NCBI GenBank assembly: GCA_951406725.2
Contig: OX597823.1
Location: 25,234,001-25,298,000, forward strand
Reading direction: 5' to 3'
From: Octopus vulgaris
Lineage: Eukaryota
Length of the DNA stretch: 64,000 nucleotides
In this document: piece after piece, positions 6,450 to 64,000 of the stretch
Position numbering within the stretch: the first letter of the stretch is position 1
Layout of the letters: each line of letters starts with the position of its first letter
The notes under the pieces: generated by a model
Told to the model about the DNA's origin: nothing
What the model saw: the letters and a program-made list of their open reading frames with translations, nothing else
The model's database searches: none
Program-made: the position numbers and the translations under genes

Positions 6450-6482
<33 letters not shown>

Positions 6483-6510
6483 GTATATATACGTATATCT
6501 ATATCTATAT

Positions 6511-6571
<61 letters not shown>

Positions 6572-7421: not shown

Positions 7422-7475
7422 CTGAAATGTTTGACAGGCAATTTTCTATATATTAATTCTAAACTTTACAACGCG

Positions 7476-7544
<69 letters not shown>

Positions 7545-7992: not shown

Positions 7993-8033
<41 letters not shown>

Positions 8034-8598
8034 ATGGTGGCGGAGATAAAGGTTTTCGTAGTAATTGGATAGTAAAAAGTGTATTGTTTTAATTGAACTA
8101 AGTTTTTTTATATCACCTATTACTTAATGCATGCGCATAAGTGCAATTCCGCGAAATATTCACGCTTATTTACATGCCAGACATATGCAATTTAAATAAA
8201 GGTTGTATCATATGTACGAGATATATATTTTCATATTTGTTCATGGAAAAAATGGAAAATTAAGAGTGGATATATATTTTATGAGTACTGAGTATTAGGT
8301 CTAGAAAATTGTGCATAAAGCATATAAACTGTATATATATATATATATATATAAAGTACATTAATTTATCACTTAATTTTCTTTCACTTTTCAATGAGTA
8401 GCAGATAAGCGACTATCTTTCCACACTGACATAATACAAGCTACGCTTTCAGATTTTTGGGATGAAGTTTTCAGAAATAACCTAATAGGTTTACCATTAA
8501 TTCAGTGAGATATTCACGGGTCCCGCTAGTATTTGTATAAAGATGATACTCAAATATAGCTGTGTATTCTATATAAGATGTTTGAAAGAAAAGTTTTC

Positions 8599-8661
<63 letters not shown>

Positions 8662-8687
8662 TATGGGAAAACTTTATATATATCATA

Positions 8688-9539
8688 TTAATTAGAGAAA
8701 AACCACTATTATGTAATTCAAACAATGATAGACATAAACCAAATCATAAAGAAAATATAAAATATATTATAAAACATATAACTAGATCACAAAAAGTACA
8801 AAAATGAATAAACAATATATAAGTAAAAAGACTACGTTTATTTAATTTTATTATTCTGTATTTATTATATGTGAACTAAAATCTAAAAGTATCAAGTGTG
8901 ATTGTTTTGTAAAATAGTTTGTAACATAAAATATTAGAATATAACTAGTGAAAAGATATTCTATAGTTTGTTAATGCTATTCTCAAAACTAAAATATATC
9001 TTCACAGATAAATACATTTTTCTATCTATTTACTCTATTTTTTTTACCTTAGGTTTTTAACATGATAAATATATTATAGACACCTGGTCCTACTTTTAAG
9101 TTTCAGATTTAGTTAACGGAGTTTCTTCTATAAGAACAATCATGATTTTATTTCTTTAAGAAATATTGTTTAATTCTATTTAATTATTTATTTAACTATT
9201 AATGTTATTATTGTTGACCTGAGGAGTGACTATACTTTTAAATTGAATTGTTTTTTCGATTAAAATTAAATTTAATTGTAATTCAAATTGAAGTTATAGC
9301 CACGAAACGTACGTAGTCTTTTTTATTATATATTGTTTATTCATTTTTTGTACTTTTTGTGATCTAGTTATATGTTTTATAATATGTTTTATTTTTCTTT
9401 ATGTTTTGGTTTAAGTCTATCATTGTTTGAATTACATAATAGTGATTTTTCTCTAATTTATATATATTATATATTTATATAGTGAAATTTGAATTTGTAG
9501 TAAATTGAATTTTTCCCAGTAAGTTTGGAGCTATACTCC

Positions 9540-9543
<4 letters not shown>
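8688..9543 (+). mobile_element. AT-rich hammerhead-bearing inverted-repeat element (copy ~61320-62128)
   Basis: ~150-bp inverted arms ~8690-8837 / 9311-9458; HHR at 9216-9318; (TA)n flanks; terminal sequence related to the 5353-6365 element. Confidence 0.7.
9216..9318 (+). ncRNA. Type I hammerhead motif with extended stem II (mutated copy at 61848-61948, GAAA>GAAT)
   Basis: gac-CTGAGGA-gtgactata...tatagccac-GAAA-cgtacg-TA-gtc. Confidence 0.7.
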
Positions 9544-9584
<41 letters not shown>

Positions 9585-9889
9585 GCTAAAGAACCCCTTA
9601 AGGCACAAGTCTGGGCAAGGTCGTTTATGGAAGACTGGCAGTTGCCCATGCATACGAGCCTCCCCACACCACGCAACCGATGTTATCCAAGAGAAAGGCA
9701 AAGCTGACACAGCTTGGCACTAGTGACGCTGCAACTCATTTCTACAGCTGTGGGAAGAGGAACAACGTGAATTAAAGTGTCTTGCTCAAGAACACAATAC
9801 ATTGCCCGGTCCTGGAATCGAACTCATTACCTCATGATTGTGAGCCCGATGCTCTAACCACCGAGCCATGCGCCTTTATATATACATAT

Positions 9890-9971
<82 letters not shown>

Positions 9972-11222
9972 TACTAATATAGGATGAAGTGTTTTTTACA
10001 GAAAAAAAATTCCATTAAAAAAATGTGGCAGCATATTAAAATACCTTTACGGTTAAAATTATAAACAACTTATAAATAAGAGCTAAAGAAAATTATTTCA
10101 ATGCCAATATGCTGATAACAGACTTTTAAATCCTCAATTTCCACATATTATTTACTCGCAACAGAAAAAAACACGAACTGAAATCGGGGAAAACTGGCCG
10201 ATAGATTAAGATATTTACATGCGCCCATGGAAAGAAGCCGAAGCAAAAATAATGAGTACATACAAGTACCCTAGATATATCTAAAAATAAAATTATTTGG
10301 CCAGCCCCAGCACAACGTGTTGACTGTTCTCCACTACAGGTTATAGTGGTTACCAGTCCCTATAGCGAGTAGTAATATGTCTACTACTAATATAGGATGA
10401 AGTTTTTTTACAGAAAAAAAAATTCCATCAAAAAATGTGGCAGCATATTAAAATACCTTTACGGTTAAAATTATAAACAACTTACAAATAAGGGCTAAAG
10501 GTCCGAAAACATACAACAGAATAGACTCCGCTTAAGGCATCTAATGTGCCTGCCAAGTAGTGGTGTTAAACGGGCTGACGGATTAAGTCTACCACTCAAG
10601 CAGACCAAGATGGAGTTTGAATTTAGAACATCAAGAGTTGGGAAAAATACCACAACGCTCTGATTCATATTTGCTGGTCTAATACTTTTAACTAGTACTT
10701 TATTTTTATTGGTCCCGGAAAGACGAAATTTAAAGTTGACCCCGGCGGGATTTGAACTCAGAATGCACTGCAAGGCATTTCATTTGCAAAGTTCTAACAA
10801 TCTTGGCAATTCATCGCTTTGGACATTAGTAAGTAGTTTTAGCAGTTTTATTGTGGTGGTGTGCCAGATTAAATATTTTGCAGCATTAAGTTTCATTTCT
10901 TTATGCTCAATATTGGTCAAGGTCAGGTTTGCCTTTCGTCTGTGCAGATTTTATAAAACACCACAGACCAAAGACTGTATTATCCTTCTTCCAAAAATGT
11001 TAAGCAGTGTACCAAAACTCTTATTAATAGCGCATCCGAGACACCGAAGCTAGGTTCTTTGGTGACGTAATATTTTTTACCTTATTCTTCTGATTTAATA
11101 ACAGGTCTTCCTTTAAGTCATAATGGAAAAATATAATTAAATTTTAACTTTAGAATACGAAACATATATTGCAAGTGAGAGGTGTTAAATGTCACAGTAG
11201 AACAATTTCATAAACAATTTCA

Positions 11223-11405
<183 letters not shown>

Positions 11406-11599
11406 TCACGATGCAAATAAGTATGTGAATATATGAGTTTTCTTTGAATATTATTTAAGTTCTTATTAATAATGTTTAAACCGCTCGCTAACAAAGTGAC
11501 AAAGCTTTTTGAGTTAAGAGAGTTCCCGTTGTTTGTAGATATATGGTTGAGTGGAATGTTGGTTGAACTGTCGATGCACACGACCAAGTACGTGCATCT

Positions 11600-12810
11600 A
11601 TTCATCTAAAGAGTCTCAGATTGAGAATCTTCAGAATGTCTTGTAAATTTTTACTATGCCGTTAATAGGTTGGATCTGGAGAAAGCGCGTCAATTTCTTG
11701 TACTATTTCTTCGAAAAGCCTGGTTTTCTAGTTTTTTTGTGTGTAAATCTGTAGATATACAGTCCAATGCACTTATGATGATTGGTACAAATGAGAATTT
11801 ATATCCAGAGTAAAAGAACTGTAGGTCTCTCATTAATTCACCATAAATATTCTCATTTTCCTGAACTATTGATTGTACATTCACATCTGCTGGGCAGCTG
11901 GCCTCTGCAACAGTGTATGACTTTTGTTTTCTGTCCCACAGAACATTATCAGGTCCATTATGATAGTACCGAATTGCTGTTTTTTTGGAGTGTTCCACCA
12001 GCATTCCTTGTTTTTAAAGGTGTGAATACCTGTTAGTTGTGACAGTCCCTCTTGCAGATAGCATTGTAAAAAGTTTTTGTATTGTTGTCATGCCTCATGG
12101 GTACGCGGTATCTTATTTTGAAGCTGCTGCTGTTGGCATGGGTAATATCTTTCACACTGATATAGCATATCCGACATTGTCTATCACAACATGGGGGACT
12201 GGTGGTATCTTTGTCTCTCTTGTTTACCAGGTATTTACTAACTATCTTCTGTTCCTGGACAGTGAAGGTATATCTTAAGTGGGATGTAATGTATTTTTCA
12301 CAGGTCCAGGAGAAGCTACTCTTCCTGTTGATGCTGATGTTATCCTGTAGCTTATGAGATATTATCTATGTATTGCTTTTTGGTGATATGATGCGTGCTT
12401 CTCGAAGCCCTGTTTAGGGAGGCCAGTTCAACCTCCTTTTGATCACACAAGTCAGTTGCACTCTCAAAGTATCTGCTCAGTTCTTTCCCTATTCTGAAGA
12501 TGTTACTTTCTCTTTTGAGTATACATGTAATATACTCATTTCTTTCTTTACTGTACAGCAAGTGTTGTCTGAGTGATACAATGCGACATTCAAAAGGTGT
12601 TTGGATTGACGTTATGTTCCTGCCACCAGCTTTTCGTCTCACTGTTTGTTTGGTAGTGCTTTTAGAGAAACATTCAAACAATCTGTATAGTGTTTGTTTA
12701 TAAGATTCAAGCATGCTATTGGCTTATTGTGTTTGGCTACGTGGCTCTCGTTGTTCTTTGGGACAGGAGTAGTCCGCGCAACCTGGTATATCTAGCTCAA
12801 CGTTCATTGT
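11600..12810 (-). mobile_element. Decayed R4/Dong-like (restriction-like endonuclease) non-LTR retrotransposon 3' part, in gene A intron 3
   Basis: RRKAGGRNI (RKEGGRGL-like), degenerate CRIC zinc knuckle, HNGPDNVLWDRKQK..EASCPADVNV..FVPIIISALD (PD..E endonuclease region). Confidence 0.65.
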
Positions 12811-12932
12811 TTTTTTAAAAAGGGTCGTGAGAATTTCCCTATACATGCATGCACGTATGTATGTATGTATGTATGTATGTATGTATGTATGTATGTATGT
12901 ATGTATGTATGTATGTATGTATGTATGTATGC

Positions 12933-13017
<85 letters not shown>

Positions 13018-13144
13018 ATCTAATATATATCTCCCTATCTCTCGTTTCTTCTATTGATATCAATATATATGTATGTACACACACACAATATATATGTATA
13101 TATGTACACACAATATATATGTATGTATGTATGTAGACACACAT

Positions 13145-14700
13145 ATGCAGAGTCTGCTTCAGTACAGAGCAAGATAGGGCCACTGTTCGAAGAAAATGGC
13201 TCGCTGACTGCAGATCCCCAGAAGATCAGTGAAATACTGAATGTGCAATACAATACTTGCAAGTAACTATGCCTGATGAGTTCTTTGGCCTAATATGCCC
13301 ATAAGGAAGGTAGCAGAGCAGATGTTAAAAATTAGACCTGTCTCTCAGCAAAGTCATGGAGCGCATTGTCCAAAATAAACTAATTGCGTTCCTTGAAGAT
13401 AATAACTTGTTTCCTGACACCCTGCATGGTTTTCGGTCAGGAAGAAGCTGCCTTACACAGCTTTTGCAGCATTATGACTGGTTGTTGAAACAACGAATCG
13501 CTCAAACGGATGTGATATACCTCGACTTTGCAAAGGCTTTTGATGAGGTTGATCATAGGATGATATGTTACAAACTACGGAAACTCGGTATAACCGGGAA
13601 ACTTTGAGAGTGGTTGCATGTTTTAAAAGACAGAAGCCAGGCTGTGGCTACCAATGGAGCTGTTACCAAGGAGATAGTAACAGAGAGTGGAGTGCCTCAG
13701 TGGACAGACAGCCACACTTACTAGTAAAGCCAACAACAATTATGTAGTGCAAGTAGTCAAGGAACCTTCTGATGCTAAGCTTCTACAGAAAAACCTAGAT
13801 GCCATACATAAATGGGCTGAGGGAAGCAACATGCAATTTAATGCAGGCAAATTCCAAGCCCTCTGCTACCAGTTAATTGGTGTTCAGAAGCCGCACAACG
13901 ATACTTTGGACCAAAAGGAGCGGCATTCCCAGAATCACATACGGTGCGTGATCTCGAGTTTGATGTGAGTAACGATGCCTCGTTTAACATGCATATCACC
14001 AAGGTGTTGGCAGTATGCAGGCGAATAGCTGGATAGATTCTGAGAACCTTCAGAACAAGAGACTAGGAAACTATGCTGAGGTTATTTGTCCTCAGCCGTC
14101 TAGACTACTGCTCTCAACTGTGGTCACAGTGTCAAATTCATAGCGGAACTTGAGGCTGATCAGCGATGTTACATAAGGAAGATTGCATCAATTGAGCAGC
14201 TGGGCTACTGGGAGAGACTGAAATAGCTACCACACTACTCCCTGGAATGAAGACGGGAGAGTTATGCAATGAAATATATATATATAGAAGACATTGGAAG
14301 GGGCTGGCTCTAAACTTCGGAATTGAGTGCTATACCAGACCCCCAACTGGACGTCACTGCACTTTTCCAAAGGTCCTAGTTTTCCCATTTAGAGAGAGAA
14401 CCATGTACTGCAATAGTTTGAGATTCAAGGACCTACAGCTATTTAACGCCTTGCCAAAATATCTGAAGGATCTTCAAGGAGTAAGGTTAGATGATTTCAA
14501 GAAACAACTAGACCTCTTGCTATCCAGATGAATCCCAGATGAATCAATATCAATATCAAGGCAGGAGACTCAAATGAGGACAGCAGTGTCGAATTCCCTC
14601 CTTCACCAAAAGCCAAGCACATAAAATTGGTCATTAAAAAAGTGATTGCACTGGTGGTGCTCCAGCATGGCCACAGCCTTAGAGCTGAAATGCACAATAC
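13145..14700 (+). mobile_element. Decayed CR1/L2-group LINE (RT fragment)
   Basis: HGFRSGRSCLTQLL, DVIYLDFAKAFDEVDH, SGVPQ, WAEGSNMQFNAGKF; multiple stops and frameshifts. Confidence 0.85.
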
Positions 14701-14701
14701 A

Positions 14702-14744
<43 letters not shown>

Positions 14745-14859
14745 ATTTATATCTACTCCTCTTCTTAGGTGGGGGTATAAAGGGTTACTAGATAACTGTG
14801 TGACAATAGTAGTGAAGATAGCTAGCATAGCCATCTATTGTTCAAATACACTTTCTAAC

Positions 14860-15003
14860 CTGGTTCTTCACTCCTGTTACGTATCCATGTTGTCTCCAGT
14901 CTACCATACGAGGTAAGTATACAAGCTTGTCGCTGACAAATGTCTCGGTAATACTGTTCTGTGGAAGAAAGCCGTTCATCATTTCTACAAACTCTCTGTT
15001 ACT
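14860..15003 (-). CDS. Cathepsin L-like gene A, exon 3 (propeptide end, mature N-terminus, oxyanion Gln)
   Basis: SNREFVEMMNGFLPQNSITETFVSDKLVYLPRMVDWRQHGYVTGVKNQ; ctacag acceptor, GTTAG donor; 144 nt. Confidence 0.95.
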
Positions 15004-16136
15004 CTGTAGATTAAAGAAAAGAAACAAGAAGATGAATACATTAAAATGTAGAAGAGCAATTTAAAATATATCTTATAAAGTCGTTTGTTAATGTGTAAGA
15101 GTGCCTGTACAAAAGCGCAAAATGGTGACACACGAAAAATGAAATGGGATTGGGCTAGCTTGTGCAATTCCTGTTCGAGCAGAATTATATGACATACTAT
15201 AAAGCATATCTTAAGACAAGTGACGTATTTGATTATCTGCAAAATGATGAAAATTGCATACTGAAATTGATGTTTGCTATAGTTCTTGTGTCTGAGTGGC
15301 ATCGTAGTATTTGTAATCCTGCTCAGAACAAGTATGGCAAGTACCATAATTCGAAAACCACATTTTCGTTTACTCTTGCATCGATATTCACACTCTCACC
15401 TGTTTGTGTGTATAATTTAAATCAATATTTGATATTTGTTTCAAATTTAGGCTAAAGGTCAGTAATTTTGGAGAAGGGGTTAATTGGTTACATTGATCTA
15501 AGTATTTGATTGGTACTTTATGTTACTGATTACGAAAAGATGAAAGGCAAAGTTGACGCTGGCGGGATTTGAACTCAGAACCAGAAGCATTTTCCGATGC
15601 TCTAACGATTCTGCTGAGTAGCTATCTCTTTCTCTATATTTCTCAATGATTGTCTGTCTGTCTACCTGTCTGTGTCATTATTTCTGCCTTTCTCCCATCT
15701 TTATCGAGCTCTCTAATTTACTTTCTCTTAATTTGTCTGTATCTATATGTTTCTGTCCCTCAGTTTCACTCCGTTTATCTGTTATCATCTATTTTTTTCA
15801 CATTCTCTATATCTATCCATCAGACCGTCCTTATATAGACATATGTCTATCTCTGACAATCAATGCATTATTTTCTATCCCTCTTTCTCTCTCTCACCCT
15901 CATTCTCTCTCATTCATACTATTTCTCTACTTCTCTGTCTCTTTCTATATGCATCTCTCTCTCTATCTCTGTTTTACTCCGCCTGTCTGTTATTCTATCT
16001 TTCTCTCACTCTCGCTCTGTCTCTTTCACTCTGTCTCTACCTCTCTGTTTCAGTTTCTTATCTTATGTTTATAACTCCCATCTCTCTCTTCCTCCCCCAT
16101 CTCTCTCAACGAGCAATATAAAACACAACATCTCAC

Positions 16137-16242
16137 CAGATCTGCATATTCGTTCATATCCATCCAAAAGGTGTGAATACCCATGTCAGCTTCTAAATTG
16201 TGTTGATTGATATAATTACCATTCTCCTTCCATATAGCACGT
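16137..16242 (-). CDS. Cathepsin L-like gene A, exon 2 (ERFNIN/GNFD-type propeptide)
   Basis: RAIWKENGNYINQHNLEADMGIHTFWMDMNEYADL; ttttag acceptor, GTGAGA donor; 106 nt keeps frame with exon 1. Confidence 0.92.
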
Positions 16243-16697
16243 CTAAAACAAATAAAACATCAATATTACATAATTTTGTATCAATAGATTAACCATATAT
16301 ATACAACGCATTGTATTCACTAGGCAAACCAGGAAAATCAGGCAAATCCACCATCTCTTTTATGAACAACACCAAATAATATATTTATAATTAATCAGCC
16401 CAAACAGCACCCACAGAAAACGAAAATACCACACTTCTACAATTTTCAGGAAGTACATATTATACATAGCAAAGATAGTAAAACAACGAACAAATTAGGA
16501 ATTAACTTGCACAACATTTGGTCAACATAAAGAAACAGCACTAGGTTATAAGTATTACATTCAACTCCATCTTTGTGCTAGATCTGGCTGAGAGCCCACT
16601 TGATCTACAACGAATCACACATAGCACGAAGTTTATAAAACATCCCAGTTCGTTTCCTCAGAGATAGCACAGAGACCATATTGAAAAATTACTTATA

Positions 16698-17180
<483 letters not shown>

Positions 17181-18755
17181 ATGTAAAAGAATTGATTTGA
17201 AAATGTGCACGCCGATTCACGGCGTCTTGTCTTATGCAATACAGAATTCAAGTCCGAACCAAGTGCATTTCTCTGTAGATCGTGTTAATCGTGCTGTAGA
17301 TCGTTTTAATCAATATCATTTTAAATCATTTTTAGCCCCAGGTCAACCGTGATCAAGTATGGTAAAGGCATTCCAACTTGAGACGTGTCTTTTCAATAGA
17401 ATTTACTATTGCATTTCTAACGAGTCTTTGCTTTTTTTAATACGTAGAGTGTAATTTAAGGAAAATCTGACTACTAGTTCCAGAAGGCGAAGCCATCAAG
17501 TAGTGCCCCTTTGTTGATTGTCCTGTATGTCAAGAAGAATATCAATATGTCACTCTGTCGAAGTGTAGTCGTTGTAGTCCCTAATTATAATTAGGGAGGG
17601 ACTACAACGTCATGGTGGTCTACATCTATTGCATGTAGGTAATTTAGTTAATATAGGAAAAGTAATATAGCAATAGGTAACGTTTTAATATTCAATAAAG
17701 CTAAGTTAGACAACGATGTAGACCGTGACCATTTTGCAGGGCCTTTGAGACCAGTAGCGAAGAGCTAGGAAGAGTTATCCTCTGATCAGAGATCTGCTTT
17801 GAATAGAAAAGGACGATTGGGTGCAACTGTTTTTGTCCCGGTCATTTACTACAAACAGTTTTGATATCAATTTATTTGGTGACAGACGTTTTAGTACCAG
17901 GAAAGAATACCCTGGAGTAATTAGTCTTTATTCACAGATATAGCTGCCAGGAGGTATTCAATAATAATTTATCTTTCTACACACACACACACATCGCACA
18001 TAGATGGTGATCTGAAGAGTGCAACCTCTAGTTATGCAGCAGAAACCTCATGAAAATGTGTATTTAGCTCCCTTAGTATTTCTGTTGCTTTAGTATGCAG
18101 CCTTGATATGGTATAATTCTTGCTTCTCTTCACATCATTTATATTCACTATCAGCTTTGCCTGCTCTTCGAAGATGATGAGAAATCCATTACTCACAAGT
18201 TTTTCATTAATACATTTCGGTAATACTTCATCAGCTTTCATATGAATAAATGAATGGTATTTAATTAAAAATATACAAAAGGATGCCAGCAGAACAACGT
18301 TTTTTGCAGTGCACATGCATGCGTTACAATAAGATATCACATTTTGGGAAGAGCAGTAGCATGATTTGTAGCCTAAGTAAAGAGCTGAACTAGGTGTAGA
18401 AGTCGAGTAGTTTGGTAGTTTCAGCCCTTTAAAGGGTTATTCATAAAAATATGCTTAAAGTTTACTTTGATGTCACCAAATGGGTTTTATTGGCATGCAA
18501 AACAGCAATGCCAACACGTACTTGACACTGTTCTGAATACTGTAACAAAGCAGTAACCACTAAAAACACTGGAAGGGAAGTGGTATTGCTAAACTAAGTC
18601 ACACCAAAATTGTTATATGATTACGGAAATGGAGGAATACGTGAGGCGCTAAAGGCGCTAATATTTGGAAGTAAATAGATATTAACTGGAATATATATAT
18701 ATATATACATAAGATCACGGTGTTATGGGTGACAGGTTAAGTATTTTCAATACAG

Positions 18756-18827
<72 letters not shown>

Positions 18828-19548
18828 TATGTATGTATGTGTGTATATATATATATATATATGTATGTAAGTCTGCACATGCATATACAGATATATAATA
18901 TATATACATATAAACACACACGCACACAACATACACTCACAGACACACAGACACAGACACACACAGACACACACACACGCATACACCCATACACACACAC
19001 AGATATAAAACATAAGATTTCATATTTCTGGAGTTAATTCTCGTCATTAACGTGAAAACGAAGTGTAATACTATAACATACTAGACAATAGTAAAATAAA
19101 ACTAACTGGTGTGGACTAAGTAAAGTATGAATTATCTGTGATATTTAGAGAGGTAGACATTTATAACCCAGCAGGTGATTTGATCCCTAATCCATAACGC
19201 AGTTTATTCAGATTGCAATAGATACGAAACCTGAGTACTGTCCGAAGGTCTGCTGATTTTATGTTATTAGCATACAGTTATATCACGTTCACATACAGAT
19301 ACATGCACACATACATGTACAAATACGGGCACACACACATACACACACACAAACACACATAGATACGTGCACACAAAAACGTATGTATGTTGTATATAAA
19401 TATATCTATGCATTAGTACACATACATGCAATGTATGTATGTTATATATAACATATCAATGCATTTACATACACACACACGCGCGCACATCCACCTCATA
19501 CAGACGCGCACTCACCCCATATATTAACACATCTATAAATAATTTTAC

Positions 19549-19685
19549 CTGAAATTTTCTGTTTCTGCGTTTCTGTATTCCTTTCTGAAAGTGGATTTGT
19601 ACAGTTCCCAATTTTCATCGTTCGGAATCAACTTTGCCGAAACGAGAGTAAAACCAATTATAAATGTAAGTAAAGGCAACATCAT
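19549..19685 (-). CDS. Cathepsin L-like gene A, coding exon 1 (signal peptide + start of I29 propeptide)
   Basis: Reverse complement translates MMLPLLTFIIGFTLVSAKLIPNDENWELYKSTFRKEYRNAETENF-R; hydrophobic leader, W..YK..F.K.Y propeptide motif; GT donor at 19548-19547; 137 nt (phase 2). Confidence 0.9.
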
Positions 19686-24493: not shown

Positions 24494-25150
24494 CAAGGCG
24501 GCGAGCTGGCAGAAACGTTAGCACGCAGGGCGAAATGCGTAGCCGTATTTCGTTTGCTATTACGTTCTGAGTTCAAATTCCGCCGAGGTCGACTTTGCCT
24601 TTCATCCTTTCGGGATCGATAAATTAAGTACTAATTACGCACTGGGGATCGATATAATCGACTTAATCCGTTTGTCTATCCTTGTTTGTCATCTCTGTGC
24701 TTAGTCTCTTGTGGGTATTAAAGAAATAGGTATTTCAACTGCCGAAGGTGGTGAGCTGGCAGAAATGTTAGCACGCCGGGCGAAATGCGTAGCCGTATTT
24801 CGTCTGCCGCTACGTTCTGAGCTCAAATTCCGCCGAGGTCGACTTTGCCTTTCATCCTTTCGAGGTCGATTAAATAAGTACCAGTTACGCACTGGGGTCG
24901 ATATAATCGACTTAATCCGTTTGTCTGTCCTTGTTTGTCCTCTCTGTGTTTAGCCCCTTGTGGGTAGTAAAGAAATAGGTATTTAGTCTGCCGCTACGTT
25001 CTGAGCTCAAATTCCGCCGAGGTCGAATTTGCCTTTCATCCTTTCGAGATCGATAAATTAATTACTAGTTGGACATTGGGGGTAAATCTAATCGACTGCC
25101 TCACCTTCCCCTAAAATTTCTGGCCTTGTGCCTAGGGTAGAAAAGAATAT
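24494..25150 (+). mobile_element. Cluster of three tRNA-derived SINE units (Meta-domain-like body); related clusters at ~27205-27585 (-) and ~32490-32900 (-)
   Basis: ggcgagctggcagaaacgttagc (A-box-like), gagttcaaattcc (B-box), gactttgcctttcatcctttcggggtcgat body; fragments also at ~15470-15610 and ~10680-10800. Confidence 0.8.
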
Positions 25151-26088: not shown

Positions 26089-27668
26089 ATGTATATGTCA
26101 CAATTGTGTCTGGCAAGTCTTATATGAATTTCTCAGATTTCAGTACAGGGAAAAAAAACCAACTGGTGTACTCCAATGTCTATATTCATGGTGCAGTCGG
26201 TCAGTATAGTAGGGAAAATTTTCGCTCATGAGTGCAGGAATAGAAAACCTCGCTTTTACAGTTTAGGCAGGTGTCTAGGTTGACAGAATTCTCAGAGCTT
26301 GCACTTCATACTACTGTTTAAGTAAGGTTTATTTGTCCAGTATTCTCCATTCGATAAGATGTGCGCAGCGTTTTCATTCAATGTCCAATGAAATGCTTAG
26401 AGGCATTTCGTCTGTTATTACGTCCTGAGTTTAAATTCTGCCGAGATCGACTTTATTAGCACTGTTATGGTCTTCTGTATTTTCGTTGTCTTTGGAATTG
26501 TTTCGGATTCTATATCTGCTAGCCAGCCTTTCTTATCATTTTGGCCTAGTCGCATAATCATTGCTCAAATGTTTCAAATATTTCTCGGTGCTGCCAGTCG
26601 CTGCAAATCCTTTTCCTCCCCTCGTATTGGTAATCCATTTCTATCTATTTTTTGCGTGCTAGCAGTCGCATATTGACAACTGCATTTATCCGGCTGCCGA
26701 GTGCGGTGCCTTCATCACTGATTCCAGTCCCATTTACGCTGTTATCTATGATACTTCTTTCTGACATTTCACTCACTTTCTGACATTTCAGTGGTGCCTT
26801 TTCATGAAACACCATCACTAGATGAATTATCAACCAAGGTTTGGAGAGACCCCCATCTACTCACTTTATGAAACAGTTATACTGCACCAGATTTTATACT
26901 GGTAGTACTGATACTGTATTGGCTCATTTTCAAAAATGTTTTTTTAGGTTGCTTGCTGTCAACTACTTACGAGTGCAACCTACTCGGATTATTTTTTGAC
27001 GTTTACTCCTCTAGAACTGCCGATTCCCGGCCAGATCTGGAAACGATAGTGGTTGAGAGATAATTCCACACTCCTCAAAACCGTGGAACTCCCGATGATA
27101 GCCCTACTACTGATGCAGTTTAACAGAAACAACAACAACTAGAATTTTGTCCGGCATGCTAACTCACTGCTTTGACAACAACAACAATAACAACAATAGC
27201 CCTTACTTAATTTAGCACATGGCCTGAAATTTGGTGGGAGAGGTCTAGTCGGTTACATCGACCCAAGTGCTTAACTGGTACTTATGCAATCGATCTCGAA
27301 AGGATGAAAAGCAAAGTCGACCTTGGCGGAATTTGAACCTAGAACATAAAGACGGAGGAAATACCTATTTCCTTATTACCCACAAGGGGCTAAACATAGA
27401 GGGGACAAACAAGGACAGACATAAGTATTAAGTCGATTACATCGACACCAGTGCATAACTGGTACTTAATTTATCGACCCCGAAAGGATGAAAGGCAAAG
27501 TCGACCTCGGCGGAATTTGAACCTAGAACATAAAGACGGAGGAAATACCGCTAAGCATAATGTTCGACGTGTTAACGATTCTGCATGTGCATAATACACA
27601 CAAACACATACACACATACATGCACGCTCACATACACGTAGGCAAACATACAAACACACGCACGCACG

Positions 27669-31198: not shown

Positions 31199-31301
31199 CT
31201 ATCTCAAAATAGGGTAACTAGCAAGGGTCGCAATACTACACATGTTGTTATAGTTCCTAGCCATTTTGATATAACCATGGTCACCCCACCGCTGACCCCA
31301 A
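31199..31301 (-). CDS. Cathepsin L-like module C, terminal exon 7
   Basis: [37 protein letters not shown]; ttttcag acceptor. Confidence 0.8.
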
Positions 31302-31350
31302 CTGAAAAGAAAAAAATTGATAATAAATCATACATTATTGACATGTATTA

Positions 31351-31491
31351 ACATTTTCTTATTAACGCAATATAATTAACAGGCAAACATTTTCTTATTA
31401 ATGCAATATAATTAACAGGTTAACATTTTCTTATTAATGCAATATAATTAACAAGTTAACATTTTCTTATTAATGCAATATAGTTAACAGG
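31351..31491. repeat. 36-bp minisatellite x4 in module C intron 6
   Basis: acattttcttattaa(c/t)gcaatataattaacagg.. repeated four times; single copy at the paralogous site ~3163. Confidence 0.8.
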
Positions 31492-33280
31492 CTGTGACAA
31501 ACAAATCTGACTGACCATACATGCCATCAGAATTCTGAATACTCATACTAACGTGTGTAGCGGTTATAGTATTGTGACGTGTCTTAGTAACTTATTCTGA
31601 ATGGTCGTGTAATTTTATAGGATTCAGATGGGTCATAGTAACATGTCATTGTGGTTATAAAGATTTCTGTACAATCATAGTGTTATGGAATGTCTTTCGG
31701 TCACATTAGTAGATTTGTGTCTGTGCGCCTCCGAAGATGCAGTACGGTGTTTTTAGGGTGGTATTTTAATAGTGTTCATAGTTGTTATAGATAAGCTTGT
31801 TATAGTGTTCATAGTTGTTATAGATTAGCTGGGGTTGCTATTGAAGGGAACACTAGGCGTTAGAGTTTTCTACAACACTGTGTCTTGCATATTCAAGTGA
31901 TCTTATATTTTGAGTGGGAGATAGAATAATTAAAATTCGTGTGCTATCAAGAATTGTGGAAGGTATGAAATATGGTTTATGTATGACACGGGGAAAATTT
32001 CTCTGCAGAACCACCCCCAAAAACATACCCTCCCTTAAATTTTAAGCATTCTGTTTCAGAGATGTTTTGCTTGCCTTTCTTTAACGCTAATGATTTTTTA
32101 AAAATCTACGTTACGGATGGAATTTTTATTGATTGCACACATTTTTGGTTCAGTTCATTAAAATATATTCCACACTCAACTGTATAATTTATAATGTTCT
32201 GTTATTTCTCCCTAAAACTCCACATGCGAGTATAAACTTTGCTATTTATTATTTTAAACAATTTTTTTAAAGATCACTGGTATGTCAAAAGTGGCAGAAC
32301 GCCAGGCTGTATATCTTGCATAAAAACCAGACCCAGTCCAGTCTGCAATGTTTAGATTTCTAAAAATTTTATATCAACTGATTTAGCTGGAGTTAACACG
32401 TTTGTTTTTAGATTTTTAAACACCACTATTGACATTTTTTGCTGATTATAGTTTAAAAACTAAGTATTCTTGTAGGTGGATAAATTAAATATTTATTTCT
32501 TCATTGCCCACCAGGGGCTAAACATAGAGAGGTCAAACAAAGGGATTAAGTCGATTACATCGAACCAGTACACAACTGGTATTTATTTAATGGACCCCAA
32601 AGGGATGAAAGGCAAAGTCAACCTCGGCGGAATTTGAACTCAGAACATAGCGGCAGAGGAAATACCTATTTCTTTATTACCCACAAGGGGCTAAACACAG
32701 AGAGGACAAACAAGGACAGACAAACGGATTAAGTCGATTGTATCGACCACAGTGCGTAACTGGTACTTATTTAATCGCCCCCGAAAGGATGAAAGGCAAA
32801 GTCAACCTCGGCGGAATTTGAACTCAGAACGTAACGGCAGACGAAATACAGCTACGCATTTCGCCCGGCGTGCTTACGTTTCTGCCAGCTCGCTGCCGCG
32901 GATAAATTAAGTTTTGTGACAGTCATGTCTTTACCAGTAGTATCATCATAACAGTATAATAAGTGACCTAAAAACGTCTCTAACTAGAATCGAAACTGCT
33001 TCACACTTTCCAGGTGTCTACTTTCTTTTCAATTATATCCAACGTAAGAGTAAATAGTATAAAATTTCTATACTTATGTCGTAAAACAAAGTATCAGTTT
33101 TCATTTTCTACTACATTTCCATTCAGATTTGGAACTAAAAATGACACCAGTGTTTGACACCGTATTTTATCGATCTCGTGGATGAAAGCAAAATTGTTTA
33201 AAGCGTGACTGGAAATCAGTCCATAGAGGGTCGTAATTAACGCAAGATATTTTATGTCTAATAATTTTGCTAGTCTACCG

Positions 33281-33373
<93 letters not shown>

Positions 33374-33427
33374 TCATACAGATAAAAATGGGGAGAGTTA
33401 AAGTAAAAAAAAAACATTGTGATTTAC

Positions 33428-33693
33428 CTGTTTTTCACCAACCAGTAGTCCTGTCCATTTTCTGTTCCGTATCCAACCACCAAGATCGCATGATTTGCTT
33501 GGTGATTACAATCATTTCTTTTGTAAATGCCATGCTTGTAGAATTGGAATGCCTTGGAATGGGCATCGATGGCAGCAGAGATTGGACCCACACCGGCCAC
33601 TGCTACTTGTAGTGCGCGCTCTCTCTTGTGCACATTAATGTAAGAACTGACAAAAGTGACTACTTTCCTACGGTCATACTTACACACTTGTTT
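33428..33693 (-). CDS. Cathepsin L-like module C, exon 6 (orphan; no exons 1-5 found upstream)
   Basis: [89 protein letters not shown]; 266 nt, same phases as A/B, intact splice sites. Confidence 0.8.
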
Positions 33694-34119: not shown

Positions 34120-36636
34120 TTTCGGACGATGCTCATTTACTCGAAGCGATAAGATTCGTTTCAGCTTCGCATGACTGTTTGGTACTAGGAGACTTCAACG
34201 CTCCCACGATCGATTGGCCCGCATCAATTTGTACATCTTCCCGGTTCGGCCAGGCCCTTCTTGACGTGGCTGAAGATTGTTTTCTATCGCAACATGTTGA
34301 ATATCCGACAAGGCATCGGTCTGGGCAGCAGCCATCTATGCTAGATCTGGTATTCTCCCGCTATCCAAGATCAGTGTCAGACGTATCTGTGTGCGCCCCT
34401 CTTGCCAAGAGTGATCATGCGGTCCTGAAGTTCGTCATGCACACAACTTTTTCTACGCCCACGACTACTTCGCTGCCACGTAGAGTCTTCTCTGCAATTA
34501 ATCTTGAAATTCTAACCGAGGCTTCCGCGCTTCTGGACTGGCGATCCCTGATGACGTTGTCCTCAGTTGACGAACTATGGTTATCCCTCAAAGCATATGT
34601 AATATGTTTGACTGACCAGGCAGTTCCCGTTGGGCTTCCCAAGAAGAAGAAACACAAGCCCTGGGTGACGAAGAAGGTTAAACGAGAACGTCGACTCAGA
34701 GATATTGCTTGGGCTGAATTCAAAAATCTGGGTTCGACTGCAGCTTTTGAGGTGTACAAAACTCAACGAGACCGAGCCGTGAAAATTGAAAAGAAAGAAC
34801 GCTTCAGTTATGAATACAAAATCGCGGCAAATGCCAGTAGCAATCCAAAAACCTTCTTTGCCCATGTCCAGCGGAATTCCCGCTTGAACAACCAGATTGC
34901 AACGTTGGTAGACTCAACAGGCGTATCGATTGAGGACCCTTATCAACAGTCAATTATTTGCCGAGGCTTTTTCAACTATTTTCAAACAAGATGATGGTCG
35001 TGAACCCCCTCCATTTGATAGATCGGTACCTCCAATGCTTCGATTGGTCATCACGCGGGATGAAGTCAAACGTGTTATTCAAGGCCTCGATGTCAACAAG
35101 GGTCACGGCCCCGACGGCATACACCCACGGGTTATCAAAGCGTTGGCTCCGGTCATCTGCGAGCCCTTAACACGACTATTCAATATGTCATTGGCGACGG
35201 GTGTTATACCTGTAGACTGGAGAACAGCGATAATCTGCCCAATTTTCAAGAAAGGGAGCCGCGAAGACCCGCTTAACTACCGACCGGTTTCCCTTACATC
35301 AATAATCAGCAAGATGTTCGAAACCATCCTTAAGAAAAGTATGATACTCCACCTCCTAAACACAGCCTCTATCTCTGATTCCCAACACAGCTTCGTGCCG
35401 AAGAGATCATGCTTGACCAACTTACTAGTAATGGAAGAATTGGTGACGCGCATCCTCGATGATAGTGATGCTGTTGACATCGTTTTATTGGACTTTGCCA
35501 AAGCTTTTGACTCGGTAAACCACCGCCTATTACTTGTCAAGCTTCAAGCATATAGTTTCCATCCGGATATTATACGATAGGTTGGTGCCTTCCTCTCAGA
35601 TCGCTCCTTCCAAGTCCAAGTTAATAGTTCGCGGTCCGACGTCTCCAGTGCGAGCAGTGGCGTGCCTCAAGGTTCAGTGCTTGGGCCCTTGTTGTTCTTA
35701 GTCTTCATAAATGACTTGCCCGACGACCTCACGCAACACACCCTTCTATTTGCCGACGATATCAAACTGGTCGCTCCTCGCGGTAATATAGAGGATCTTC
35801 GTCGATGCCTCCACCAAATTTGGAAGTGGTCTAACGATTGGGACCTGTGTCTGAACGTGTCAAAGTGCTGTCATCTGCCTGTCGGCTCTACTCCTGCAAC
35901 TCAACTTGATTTCGAGCCGGGTCGTCTGCTGCTGGAGAGGACCGATCAGGTAAAGGACCTGGGTATCTTGGTGGATTCCTCCTTTTCGCCTTCGGCCCAG
36001 TGCGTCCATGCTGCCAACAAAGCACGCGGAATTCTGTTCTTGATTCGACGGTCATTCGGAATGCTCACAGCAGCCATATTCCTACCACTCTATGTCACGC
36101 TGGTGAGACCCATATTGGAGTATGGGATTCAAGCCTCTTCTCCTTATCTCCTCAAAGACATACAGCATCTCGAAAGAGTCCAGAAGCTGGCTACCCGCAT
36201 GGTTCATGGTCTCAAAAATTTGTCCTACGAAGAAAGGCTGAGGACGCTCGACCTTTATTCTCTTGAAAAACGCCGCCGCCGTGGTGATCTCATTCTCGCC
36301 CACAACATCATAAGTGGAAAGTGTAACCTCTCGAAAGAGCTGTTCTTCACTCCTGCTCCAGAGCGTCGGCTGCGGGGTCATTCCGAAAAGCTCTACCTGC
36401 GACGATTTCATCTCAATCGAAGGAGAGGAGCTTTCTCCGTTCGGGTTGCGGATCCGTGGAACAAGCTGCCAGACGAGATGGTGAAGATGCCGACGACCGC
36501 TTTGTTCAAAGCCTCCCTGGACCTCAAGTGGCCTGAACTCTTTACATGAACACCACCCTGTACTTAACTCCATGTCCCCCTACATGGCCTTGCTATTTGC
36601 TTTTGAGCCAAATTAACTAACTAACTAACTAACTAA
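34120..36636 (+). mobile_element. Relatively young 5'-truncated CR1-group LINE (APE end + RT), inactivated
   Basis: VLGDFN, LDLVFS, SDHAVL (APE); GPDGIHP, NYRPVSLTS, LDFAKAFDSV, PQGSVLGP, LFADD (RT); one frameshift ~34930-34990, TAG at 35578; (TAAC)n tail. Confidence 0.92.
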
Positions 36637-38036
36637 CATACACTTTTATTGTAATTCAGTTTTGAATCAATTAACAAGTGATTTACTGTCCATTTATGTC
36701 TCTGGACAGCCTTACACGTGGTTTTCTTAATTGTATTTATTTCAATTATCACCTTTATTTGACTGTAAAAAATGTGCACCTTTTATCTTTTACTTGCGTC
36801 AGTCGTTAGACTGCAACCATGTAATTAATACAAGGGTTTTAGTTGAAGGAATCGACCTCAGTACTTATGTTTTGAGCCTGGTACGTATTCTGTTGTTCTC
36901 ATTTGCCGAACCGCTAAGTTACGGGGACGTAAACAAACTAAGCAGTGTTGAAGGATAAACACAGACACAAAAACACACACAGATATATATACGAGAAGCT
37001 CCTTACAGTTTCCGTCTACCAAATCCACTCACGAAGCTTTGCTCGACCTGGTGCTAAAGTATGGTCGAGCAACAAATTTCTAATCACACAGTCATACACT
37101 CACACGGACGCGCATACACACACAGACACACGCGCACACACACACACACACATACATACATACATACATACATACATACATACATACATACATACATACA
37201 TACATACATACATACATACATACATTTTATCAGAGTCCATTCTAATGCAAGCATTTCAGCCAGATCTCTAGTTTAAGGATACTTTCCTCTCTACTTCTCA
37301 TTGATCTTTGAGGCCTTGTAATGAGTTACAAGCCATCGCCTTTCCTGCTGGTTAAAAGATTAAAGAGTCCACCAGAGATACAATGTAATATATAGTAAAC
37401 TGACTGACTAAGGGACTTATGAAGATGATAGTTGCACAGGTGTATTTGTAAGTGGAAGCACCAATGATATGCTGGGAGGGTTCACCAGACAATAGTTTCC
37501 ACCAGGTGAGTGAGCCAAGTTGTACTGCAGGCTGTTATATTGAAAGCGTAATATCTAGTGTAAGGAAGGAATGGTGTTCTGGTAATACTGAGAATTCCTA
37601 TTTAATTGACTGCAATACAAGGAAAACAACCACATATCTCCCCAATCAGAACAAATTATAAGTCTTTAAAAAATATCTCATGATGTTATCCAAAATACAC
37701 CATATCCTGATCATAAGACTGTTTATTCAGGGTTAATCTGGGGTTAGACAACAACAGCAAAGAGTTTCTTAATGAAAAAGGAAAACTGTTGAATGTTGAA
37801 TAAGAAGATCTCCAGGAGTAGAAGATAAATATAATGGATACAATCTTATTAGACAAATACACTGAGAGAGTTGCTGGGCAAGGCAGAGTAGATATTAGTT
37901 GAAATGAGCATTGAAAACAATACCATTGGTAATGTGATATAATCCTACCTACCTACCTACCTACCTACCTACCTACCTACCTACCTACCTACCTACCTAC
38001 CTACCTACCTACCTACATACCTACCTATCTACCTAC

Positions 38037-54047: not shown

Positions 54048-54105
<58 letters not shown>

Positions 54106-54601
54106 TAATATAGGATAAAATTTTTCGAAAAAATATTTTATCAATGGCCAGCATATTAAAAAATACCTTTAAAGGTTAAATTTATAAACAAGGGCAAAAG
54201 AAAAAAATTCTAATGCCAAATATGCCGAAACTAGACACATCGTCCATAACCATATAATTCATCACTATAAGCACGCGACTCGAAGAAAGCCGACAGAAAT
54301 TTCTAAAAAATTCCGTTATTACCATATCGGACCCAATATGGTAATAACGGAATTATACCCATGGGTATAAGTAAGTATTTCATTTATTCCTTTGCCGCAT
54401 TTATCACTGACGAAGAGAAGGTTCTTATGAACTAACTCTGAAATCGGGTCCGATATGGTAATAACGGAATTTTTTAGAAATTTCTGTCGGCTTTCTTCGA
54501 GACGCGTTCTGATAGTGATGAATTATATGGTTATGGACGATGTGTCTAGTTTCGGCATATTTGGCATTAGAAAATTTTTTCTTTTGCCCTTGTTTATAAG
54601 T

Positions 54602-54645
<44 letters not shown>

Positions 54646-54852: not shown

Positions 54853-54987
<135 letters not shown>

Positions 54988-56291: not shown

Positions 56292-56557
56292 CTGTTTTTC
56301 ACCAACCAGTAGTCCTGTCCATTTTCTGTTCCGTATCCAACCACCAAGATCCCATGGTTCAATTTGTGGTTACAATCATCACTTACGTAAACGCCATGAC
56401 TGTAGAATTGGAATGTAGTGGGACTTGCATCGATGGAAGCAGAGACCGGACCCACGTTGGCCACTGCTATTTGTAGTGCTTGTTCTGTCTTTAGCACATC
56501 AACATAATTAGTATCAAAAGCGACTACTTTGCTCCTGTTATACCAACACGTCTGTTG
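56292..56557 (-). CDS. Cathepsin L-like gene B, exon 6
   Basis: QQTCWYNRSK...LKTEQALQIAVANVGPVSASIDA...KLNHGILVVGYG...WLVKN-S; 266 nt. Confidence 0.94.
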
Positions 56558-58246
56558 CTATATATATTAAAAAAAATAGCGATATAGAAGTTAGATTAAA
56601 CTGGTAAAACCAGTAAGCAAAAATTGCTTTTTAAATGTCAAAAAATTCTCGATGTCAGCAACAATTATAGAGCAAACACACACATAAATACGCGCGCGCA
56701 CACACACACACATTCTAAAGTGTCTATGCTGTCATCAATGGATAAATAGTAACATGTATAAAAAGCAAATGGATTCAATAATGATAGTAAAGTAAATATT
56801 CGTCATTGAGTGCTGGAAGGATACTGTGTGGCGAAAGCATGTATCGCTGTAGAATCGCAAAGTACTCTCTTAATCGAGTTTATATGGCGTCATAGCATTT
56901 CATAGTGCTTGATATGAACAATCTTACATATAATAAAGCGCAATATTTCACGTCAGTCACTCTGGTAGAGAGAAACTAAAACAACAAACGGAGTAGGAGC
57001 GAATGATAGTCAGAGATGCTAAATCCAGGCGAACTGTAGAGAGACGTTTTGCTCTGAAGTCGCTGATATTTTAATCAAAATAAAACTGCAAATTTTTATC
57101 GTGAATTATATTTATTTTATCTATTTCAGATACACACACATATATGAAATTAGTTATTAAACGCTTTTGCTTTCAAAATATTATCATTAACACAATATTT
57201 ATAACTTATATATATATATATTAAATTAGAAATAAAACCACTATTAGGCAAATCAAACAGTGAAAAACATAAACCAAAACATAGAAATAAAATTAACATA
57301 ATATACAAAATATATAATATATAAAATTCAAAATTTAAATTATTTAAATTTAAAGTTAAAATTTTAAAAAAAATTTCAAATTATTTAATTATACTTATAA
57401 ACTATATATATATATATACATATATTATTATCTTTATTTTTTCAATAATATATTTATTTAATTTTAAAAATATATATATATAACTATCAAAAATTATTAA
57501 AATGTTTAATATAAGATAGTACTATCAATTATCGATTGAAAAAAGCAATATATAAGATATAATAACAATTATAAAATATTTAAAATAACTATCAACCAAT
57601 ATAGTTATTAAAGACTAAAATCTATGCTATCAATACATGTATATACATGAAACCTAACTTTAAAAAAACTCGTATAACTGTTAACGATCTATACATCTCT
57701 TTGGCTAAGTAAAGTCTTATGAATAAACGTAGAGTTAAAATCTAATAATTATATAGAAAAAACTACGATAACTAAATCATTACATAACAACAAGAATTTA
57801 TATAAAATACAAAATTATACAATAATACTTATTAAAATATTTAAATTAAAAAATTAAAAAATTAAAAAATCTTAAATCTTAAAAAATTCAAATATTATTC
57901 AAATATTATATAATTATTTGACTTGAAATTAAATTTAATAATATGAATTGTGATATTTTTGTTAAATGTTTAGGTAATTAGATATTGACTATAACTCAGG
58001 TTAGATTATTTGTAGGTTTATTATGTTTTTTTAAGCCATATTATATCTGAATAGATAAATACATTTTCTATCTATTCTTACCTTAAAAATTAATACTTAA
58101 AAATTAACATTTAACATTATAATCGATTGTATGACATAATGATAAACGTTTGATAATAGAGTTTTTTATAAGAAAAATTATTATTTTATTTATTTCTTAA
58201 AAAAATATTCTTTAAATATATTTGATTATTTATTTAAATATTATCA

Positions 58247-58345
58247 TTAACCTGAAGATTGACTATAACCATAATTCGAATTATTAACTGAATTTAAATT
58301 ATTGTTTTTCGAATTAGGTTATGGGCATGAAACGATCGTAGTGGT
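58247..58345 (+). ncRNA. Type I hammerhead motif with extended stem II (copy at 5661-5759 on minus strand has C3>A)
   Basis: CTGAAGA(58252)-ttgactataacc...ggttatgggcat-GAAA-cgatcg-TA-gtggt; stems I and II imperfect. Confidence 0.6.
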
Positions 58346-58475
58346 TTTACTTTTTATCTTATATTAAACATTTTAATAATTTCTGATAGTTATATATATT
58401 TAAAAAAAATTTAATAAATATATAATTAAAAAAATAATATATATATATATATCTATATCTATATATATATCTATA

Positions 58476-58557
<82 letters not shown>

Positions 58558-58835
58558 TATATATATTTATATATATATATAAAATTTAAAACTATAATAT
58601 AATAATTTAAAAATTTTTTAAAATTTTAACTTTAAATTTAAATAATTTAAATGTTGAATTTTATATTTTATATATTTTATATATTATATTAATTAATTTT
58701 ATTTCTATGTTTTGGTTTATGTTTTTCACTGTTTGATTTGCCTAATAGTGGTTTTATCTCTAATTCAATATATATATTTATACTGTAAAATTAGATTTAA
58801 TCCTAAATCTAATTTTTCCCTGTAATTTTTCCTCA

Positions 58836-59975: not shown

Positions 59976-60073
59976 CATTGCGCGGTATGGGTAGGATATT
60001 TCTGATTCTATACCAAATATTCGGATATATCTGAATGCTTGGTCCATAAGTCCTCCGTCGCAGCCAGTGCTTC
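59976..60073 (-). CDS. Cathepsin L-like gene B, exon 5
   Basis: [33 protein letters not shown]; 98 nt, AG/GT intact. Confidence 0.94.
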
Positions 60074-62423: not shown

Positions 62424-62484
<61 letters not shown>

Positions 62485-62488
<4 letters not shown>

Positions 62489-63107
62489 GAATGAAGTGTT
62501 TTTTACAGAAAAAAAATTCCATCAAAAAATGTGGCAGCATATTAAAATACCTTTACGGTTAAAATTATAAACAACTTATAAATAAGAGCTAAAGAAAATT
62601 ATTTCAATGCCAATATGCTGATAACAGACTTTTAAATCGTCAATTTCCACATATTATTTACTCGCAACAGAAAAAAATACGAAGAACTGAAATCGGGGAA
62701 AGCTGGCCGATAGAATTTTAAAAAAAAGTTCGTTATTTCTATATTGAATCAATTTCGGAATTAATCTCATAATAGATTCTTTCCTCTTCAGTAGAACATA
62801 CGAAAGGATATAATTAAGATATTTACATGCGCCCATGGAAAGAAGCCGAGGCAAAAATCATGAGTACATATGAGTACCCTAGATATATCTAAAAATAAAA
62901 TTCTTTGGTCAGCCCCAGCACAACGTGTTGACTGTTCTCCACTACAGGTTATAGTGGTTACCAGTCCCTATAGCGAGTAGTAATATGTCTACTACTAATA
63001 TAGGTTGAAGTTTTTTTACAGAAAAAAAATTCCATCAAAAAATGTGGCAGCATATTAAAATACCTTTACGGTTAAAATTATAAACAACTTACAAATAAGG
63101 GCTAAAG
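62485..63107 (-). mobile_element. Partial-tandem (~0.5 kb monomer) hammerhead element; copy 9971-10499 lacks the ribozyme
   Basis: ~115-bp direct repeat at both ends (9971 and 10384 in A); ends similar to the 2333-2836 family; HHR at 62737-62796. Confidence 0.7.
62737..62796 (-). ncRNA. Type I hammerhead ribozyme, core intact, sense in gene B intron 4
   Basis: Minus strand: ttcta-CTGAAGA-ggaa(ag)aatct..agatt(aa)ttcc-GAAA-ttgattcaa-TA-tagaa; 5-bp stem I, stem II and stem III present, AUA cleavage triplet. Confidence 0.85.
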
Positions 63108-63829
63108 GTCCGAAAACATACAACAGAATAGACTCCGCTTAAGGCATCTAATGTGCCTGCCAAGTAGCGGTGTTAAACGGGCTGACGGATTAAGTCTACC
63201 ACCCAAGTAGACCAAGATGGAGTTTGAATTTAGAACATCAAGAGCTGGAAAAAATACCACAACGCTCTGATTCATATTTGCTGGTCTAATACTTTTAACT
63301 AGTACTTTATTTTTATTGGTCCCGGAAAGACGAAATTTAAAGTTGACCCCGGCGGGATTTGAACTCAGAATGCACTGCAAGGCATTTCGTTTGTAAAGTT
63401 CTAACAATCTTGCCAATTCATCGCTTTGGACATAAGTAAGTAGTTTTAGCAGTTTTATTGTGGTGGTGTGCCAGATTAAATATTTTGCAGTATTAAGTTT
63501 CATTTCTTTATGCTCAATTTTGGTCAAGGTCAGGTTTGCCTTTCGTCTGTTCAGATTTTATAAAACACCACAGACCAAAGACTGTATTATCCTTCTTCCA
63601 AAAATGTTAAGCAGTGTACCAAAACTCTTATTAATAGCGCATCCGAGACACCAAAGCTAGGTTCTTTGGGGACGTAATATTTTTTACCTTATTCTTCTGA
63701 TTTAATAACAGGTCTTCCTTTAAGTCATAATGGAAAAATATAATTAAATTTTAACTTTAGAATACGAAACATATATTGCAAGTGAGAGGTGTTAAATGTC
63801 ACAGTAGAACAATTTCATAAACAATTTCA

Positions 63830-64000
<171 letters not shown>

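Follow-up and report, generated by a model that had tools for sequence, protein, structure and literature searches.

Metazoan non-LTR retrozymes are non-coding, low-GC repeats of a few hundred bases that carry one type I hammerhead ribozyme per unit, occur in head-to-tail and in numerous solo copies, and are found alongside Penelope-like elements. Units of 150-450 bp have been described (Cervera & de la Peña 2020, PMC7229834), and a recent preprint reports 51-972 bp (Li, Clavereau & Pollet 2026, 10.64898/2026.07.22.740005). Their cleavage rates are 0.8/min in coral and 0.1/min in mussel (PMC7229834). In Xenopus, solo intronic retrozymes are common (42-44% of copies), and introns are depleted of retrozymes (10.64898/2026.07.22.740005), which implies a cost. 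Fast intronic ribozymes reportedly lower splicing, and slow ones are reported to be without effect (Fong 2009, cited in PMC10274809). The known domesticated intronic ribozymes are highly conserved: the HDV-like ribozyme of CPEB3, which has a measured effect on mRNA (PMC10274809), and the intronic hammerheads of amniotes, which are described in these terms (de la Peña & García-Robles 2010, cited at second hand). For cephalopods, 235 hammerhead hits have been reported in the giant squid (PMC6962438). No cephalopod family was encountered in the text of the two retrozyme studies (PMC7229834, 10.64898/2026.07.22.740005); nor was the 514-nt hammerhead family presented below found described in the main texts of the literature, the supplements of which could list it.

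The window, i.e., the whole 64,000-nt stretch of Octopus vulgaris DNA analysed here (contig OX597823.1, positions 25,234,001 to 25,298,000), contains cathepsin L gene A and part of its duplicate, gene B. A sequence-only reading had recognized a complete type I hammerhead in sense orientation in gene B, and this assignment holds. The predicted motif reads from 62796 to 62737 (minus strand) with the core bases C3-U4-G5-A6-A7-G8-A9, G12-A13-A14-A15.1, U16.1 and A17 in order, so that CUGANGA, GAAA and NUH follow one another among helices I, II/IIb and III. Stem I comprises 5 bp; helix I is open-ended and continues into a distal extension of another 5 bp (62804-62800 pairing with 62729-62733), with which the motif spans 62729-62804. 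Stem II, GGAA/UUCC, is prolonged by helix IIb, AAUCU/AGAUU, and stem III has 4 bp, counting the 15.1-16.1 pair, and an AUU loop. With A17 at 62742 and the pairs checked, the cut is predicted between 62742 and 62741, as had been proposed. A structural descriptor matched three hammerheads in the window, compared to a mean of 0.01 per shuffle (one of 100 shuffles had a match). Helix II reads GGAA/UUCC, AGAG/CUCU and GGGG/CCCC in three related repeat families, helices I and IIb differ among all three and helix III differs in the second, with pairing retained throughout; these pairs were read via a motif pattern that itself demanded most of helices I and II to be paired. Rfam models gave no hammerhead match to the B motif, neither at the gathering score nor at E≤10; the long helix II/IIb may put it outside the Rfam hammerhead models.

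Nearest-neighbour folding, which ignores tertiary contacts, does not favour the active form of the monomer: the active fold has an energy of -12.2 kcal/mol versus -16.1 kcal/mol for an inactive one, a gap of 3.9 kcal/mol, and in the latter the core pairs with helix III. The pair probability of helix III is low, at most 0.02 both for the motif alone and within its intron context, and the folding z-score of the motif is only -1.2 to -1.6. Two copies arranged as a double hammerhead reach -34.7 kcal/mol versus -32.2 for two monomers, and the best co-fold, at -37.8 kcal/mol, is inactive, again computed without tertiary contacts. The near-palindromic helix III suits a double hammerhead, as in the hammerheads of Penelope pseudo-LTRs, in which, however, helix III has the minimal form instead of the full 4 bp seen here (PMC4209133); gene B holds only one copy.

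Both host genes lie on the minus strand and have seven coding exons with a 324-codon open frame, GT-AG boundaries at all six introns, and the Cys, His and Asn motifs. Gene A spans 3005-19685 (exons 1-4: 19685-19549, 16242-16137, 15003-14860 and 11381-11258; exons 5-7: 7421-7324, 4679-4414 and 3104-3005). Exons 1-3 of gene B are outside the window, in locus L043, and are followed inside it by exon 4 (63865-63988), which encodes CGSCWAF with the catalytic Cys and is seen spliced in RNA contigs, exon 5 (59976-60073), likewise seen in RNA contigs, exon 6 (56292-56557), a Peptidase_C1 segment with the catalytic His and Asn whose best solved relatives are cathepsin L, and exon 7 (54853-54952). The hammerhead is positioned in sense orientation in intron 4 of gene B (63864-60074), with the donor 1,123 nt upstream and the acceptor 2,668 nt downstream; the strand given by the earlier reading was thus correct. 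Paralog C is more distant, with 74% amino-acid identity to B; its full exon set is found in L045-L046, and window positions 31202-33693 hold a partial copy with the last two exons only, made by the duplication breakpoint. Between A and B, 18 amino-acid differences stand next to only four silent codon differences (pN/pS ~1.1, versus ~0.5 for B and C); seven of the changes are assigned to the A lineage, eight to the B lineage and three are unpolarised, and several are located beside the catalytic Cys and the CxGG loop. These changes may reflect relaxed or positive selection on duplicated proteases.

What the earlier reading had called a host element is a repeat of several hundred copies. The hammerhead is an integral component of this 514-nt non-coding repeat and is normally present in its copies. 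One full unit occupies 62484-62997 (minus strand, 32% GC, longest ATG-ORF 60 aa). At its 5' end, the insertion repeats ~110 nt from the 3' end of the unit as a partial tandem (62998-63107, minus strand) that contains no second hammerhead, and a (TA)n tract (62427-62483) closes the 3' end of the element. In the genome (2.8 Gb, 227 contigs), the 30-nt 3' half of the motif has 230 exact matches and a reversed control none. A search with the surrounding 391 bp returned 1,611 first-look candidates and a further search 1,402; of the 1,611, 40 were scored, with 90-95% identity, the window's own copy aside. All 29 of the other top loci have the 99-bp segment that gene A lacks, in a set biased by a query that contained the segment; the core is intact in 22 of these 29 copies, and the core together with all of helices I-III in 14. 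A query placed entirely downstream of the ribozyme gave 28 other matches, of which 20 include the whole ribozyme and eight are 5'-truncated; none of the 28 has an internal deletion of it.

The anatomy of the family was surveyed at 71 distinct loci (87 before removal of overlaps). Termination at (TA)n is seen at 69 of the 71 other loci, inverted 5' pieces at 24, and a length beyond one unit at 20, the longest copy extending over 1.8 units and none reaching two full units. Copy ends cluster at two points, corresponding to ~62566 and ~62484, and copy starts are scattered; such a pattern would be expected from a continuous circular or multimeric template. Four two-ribozyme copies (L012, L024, L055 and L057), most with one damaged ribozyme, define monomers of 489-520 nt, the circular-fold z-scores of which range from -1.1 to -6.7 (30 shuffles). 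Two candidate genomic copies beginning at the cleavage site were discarded as, on inspection, they start 7-9 nt downstream of it, and a TA tract joined directly to the post-cut sequence had no match in the genome search, where three control motifs gave 0, 1 and 1. The RNA-like run X1 includes, at 62500-63110, contigs that derive from further members of the retrozyme family.

The 514-nt repeat is likely a non-LTR retrozyme or non-autonomous Penelope-type element, judging from its sequence organization. It resembles the metazoan non-LTR retrozymes in the presence of one type I hammerhead per unit, in the size (a few hundred bases), low GC content and non-coding nature of that unit, in its head-to-tail two-ribozyme copies, which exist at the level of the family but not in gene B with its single ribozyme, in its numerous solo copies and in the co-occurrence of Penelope-like elements. 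It differs from them, as far as their published descriptions go, by a unit that exceeds the 150-450 bp of the 2020 study (PMC7229834) and still lies within the 51-972 bp of the preprint, by the lack of any copy with two full units among the 71 loci, and by the strictness of its (TA)n targeting and the inversion of 5' pieces. Partial tandems, inverted 5'-truncated pieces and insertion into a (TA)n microsatellite are, in turn, shared with Penelope-like elements (PMC4209133, PMC8557442); a (TA)n target would obscure a target-site duplication, as noted for these elements (Craig et al. 2021, PMC8557442). Unlike them, the unit has no ORF: an RT plus GIY-YIG frame is absent from the unit, and no long ORF is joined to it in the loci scanned. 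A candidate driver exists elsewhere in the genome in the form of intact 781-aa RT+GIY-YIG ORFs, whose elements also close at (TA)n. Comparison of the unit with the bodies of 20 of the 148 GIY-YIG matches revealed no clear sequence homology, and the Penelope-like partner is therefore a putative one; the sole match in this comparison is a separate, related insertion in the TA tail of L086. The repeat thus adds a family, probably a cephalopod one, and two related families to the known hammerhead retrozymes; its (TA)n targeting is clear and its anatomy of the Penelope type.

Several observations concern these Penelope-like elements themselves. The insertion in L086 (2822-3264) represents the third related hammerhead family, lies inside the (TA)n tail of an autonomous Penelope-like element and has helices that covary with those of the other two families. 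L125-L128 and L130 (e.g., L125 1745-4087) belong to a young Penelope-like family in which numerous 781-aa RT+GIY-YIG frames and an upstream ORF of ~360-380 aa are found; ~100 nt before their (TA)n end, a putative minimal hammerhead with a U3-A8 core variant was recognized by eye.

Genes A and B lie in a tandem duplicate of 52-53 kb, whose junction at ~37224 (37220-37228) is a clean transition from a tetranucleotide microsatellite to unique sequence, with no N in 184 kb; substitution divergence between the duplicates is 2.05% over 34.5 kb. The insertion is present in both. In gene A (9962-10500, minus strand), it lacks exactly the 99 bp at 62715-62813 (with a 1-nt ambiguity), leaving a junction at 10205, in line with the ~99 bp estimated by the earlier reading. 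The flanks of the insertion have seven private changes that are common to A and B and absent from the family majority, indicating a single insertion before the duplication and a deletion in A afterwards. Together with the presence of the segment in all 29 other copies, these shared changes confirm that A lost the segment and B did not gain it. A gain in B with a target-site duplication was rejected, as the family itself carries the segment, and a deleted subfamily as the source of A found no match across A's junction at 39 other scored places (query spanning the junction). Intron 4 of paralog C contains no copy of the repeat, and the insertion, ~3-4% from the family majority, is young.

The ends of the deletion adjoin a 9-nt near-repeat, with eight of nine letters identical here and seven of nine in most other copies; one of the matches is a letter present in both A and B and missing from most other copies. 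The junction in A misses an in-register join by one base. To judge from these ends, the segment was likely lost through slippage or through end-joining across the hairpin. At two of the 71 other loci the whole ribozyme is gone as well, independently, in a set biased towards ribozyme-bearing copies: L067, where an inverted piece is affected, lacks it from ~62796 to 62719, and L020 has lost 184 nt. On the other hand, if 11 clean A/B indels picked by hand were placed uniformly, the whole 60 nt would be removed in 0.3% and the core hit in 3% of cases, which, although calculated post hoc, makes an accidental loss of the motif unlikely a priori. Other rearrangements separate the duplicates: a 2.5-kb LINE-like insertion with endonuclease and RT frames (34125-36636) is found in the A-side unit only, and in intron 5 a segment is inverted and rearranged between A (5339-6258) and B (57770-58782). 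A dispersed repeat with tandem units of ~180-250 bp in both orientations occupies 24495-25131, 27215-27584 and 32486-32897, in which the structural descriptor detects no hammerhead.

Contigs of two runs, X1 and X2, show that transcripts of B include the ribozyme and that intron 4 is removed by splicing. The runs come from different studies with differing organism labels; none of the runs listed as containing the sequence is recorded as RNA, and X1 and X2 were taken as such only since their contigs are spliced: they connect exons 3 and 4 as well as exon 4 and the B-type exon 5. The exon 4 contig of X2 has no difference from B, from which A differs there at four sites, and the intron contigs of X1 and X2 that run into the ribozyme are likewise identical to B, with A differing at six sites; one X1 contig has the A-type letter at 63924. 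Such contigs drop minor variants, give no expression levels and cannot show RNA ends. The stop of the B-type intron contig of X1 at 62743, one base from the predicted site, was rejected as an RNA end: B has a private letter at 62773, exactly 30 nt away, and the stop is a break of the 31-mer graph. The X2 intron contig disagrees, stopping at 62786, and the gap in X2 cover at 62704-62754 carries no evidential weight. At mammalian polymerase speeds, the calculated share of transcripts cut before exon 5 would be 6-46% for the mussel and coral rates of 0.1-0.8/min and ~1% for 0.01/min, so that a side effect on the splicing of B is conceivable.

The proposal that the ribozyme serves as a pre-mRNA cleavage device distinguishing the two paralogs finds no support in these comparisons. 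The ribozyme belongs to the repeat and differs from the family majority at one of 60 positions, compared to 11 of 311 in the flanks (p=0.70), which means that, by sequence comparison, it is no better conserved than its surroundings and lacks the conservation of a domesticated ribozyme; moreover, C has no copy in intron 4, the ribozyme has been deleted independently at two of 71 loci, and B-type mRNA is spliced across intron 4 in the RNA contigs of two studies. Like the CPEB3 ribozyme and the amniote intronic hammerheads, the motif has sense orientation within an intron, and the following exon begins a few kb further downstream; unlike them, this predicted ribozyme is a young member of a large repeat family and shows no excess conservation.

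Most likely, the locus represents a retrozyme-type repeat, probably moved by Penelope-like retroelements, which resides as a passenger in intron 4 and whose ribozyme was lost from A by what was probably a neutral accident. Such a history could have unfolded as follows: the family, whose copies normally carry the ribozyme and display Penelope-type insertion anatomy, would employ it to process multimeric transcripts to monomers or circles, and a Penelope-like RT/GIY-YIG protein may copy these into (TA)n tracts, in analogy to the systems in the literature. A 1.2-unit copy with a single ribozyme entered intron 4 after the split from C and before the A/B duplication; A then lost its 99 bp, probably by slippage or end-joining across the hairpin at the 9-nt near-repeat. 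The lone ribozyme of B presumably cuts slowly or cuts only a minority of nascent transcripts, and mRNA output would thus be little affected. The loss in A was most probably a plain deletion and not a regulatory switch, and a regulatory role of the B ribozyme is improbable.

Three other readings have to be weighed against this passenger history. The ribozyme of B could be harmful, aborting a fraction of co-transcriptional splicing at a mild cost, so that A's deletion was favoured. An intact core in sense orientation 2,668 nt upstream of a 3' splice site, the reduction of splicing by fast intronic ribozymes (Fong 2009, cited in PMC10274809), the intron depletion in Xenopus (10.64898/2026.07.22.740005) and a deletion that spans the entire motif (0.3-3% under uniform placement, post hoc) are consistent with such a cost; nevertheless, the reading is unlikely, given that the ribozyme-keeping B is the type seen spliced in X1 and X2, in contigs that drop minor variants, that misfolding is predicted when tertiary contacts are left aside, and that the same kind of deletion occurred at L067 and L020. 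The related proposal that a sense retrozyme in an intron of a highly expressed cathepsin L gene caps the output of B by cutting nascent transcripts fast enough, with A having escaped by deleting precisely the ribozyme, seems equally doubtful; if true, A and B would form a natural plus/minus ribozyme pair in which the catalytic RNA of a transposon sets the dosage of two diverging proteases. Even less probable, and in our view quite unlikely, is co-option of the ribozyme as a CPEB3-like tuner that sets the expression of B relative to A. The motif has only one difference from the family majority over 60 nt, B-identical intron contigs reach into it in two runs with different organism labels, and the 18 amino-acid versus four silent differences suggest that A and B may be diverging in function. 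Against these points stand a conservation not above that of the flanks (p=0.70), the equally intact state of about half of the family copies (14 of 29), the youth of the insertion (~3-4% from the family majority) and its absence from C, and the high conservation of the domesticated intronic ribozymes described so far.

There is also a slim chance that A and B are alleles of one gene that the assembly has set in tandem, which would make the 99 bp an allelic indel. Divergence of ~2% is near allelic levels for marine invertebrates, and the duplicates differ by 2.05% over 34.5 kb; the DNA runs X18 and X19 each have one version with many A-type letters, and the joint that skips the 99 bp is listed in none of four runs. 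The contigs drop variants, so that a single or mosaic version is also expected from collapsed paralogs, and for this reason the DNA contigs were set aside as proof of allelism. Two genes are favoured by the junction, where the sequences are newly and cleanly joined in 184 kb free of N, and by the 18 amino-acid differences, which are divided between both copies. The A/B pair provides a convenient natural control for the question of whether a host gene loses mRNA through a solo retrozyme on its sense strand, a question that arises from the depletion of retrozymes in Xenopus introns (10.64898/2026.07.22.740005).

A second hammerhead, of a related repeat family, is predicted at 2632-2696 (plus strand), downstream of the stop codon of gene A and antisense to it, and again at 54399-54463. 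The repeat copies concerned (2295-2866 and 54063-54633) include an inverted 5' piece and have been retained in both duplicates, the ribozyme lying ~300-400 bp past the cathepsin stop codon; the family has 2,881 first-look candidates in the genome. For this hammerhead, the predicted minimum-energy fold is the active one.
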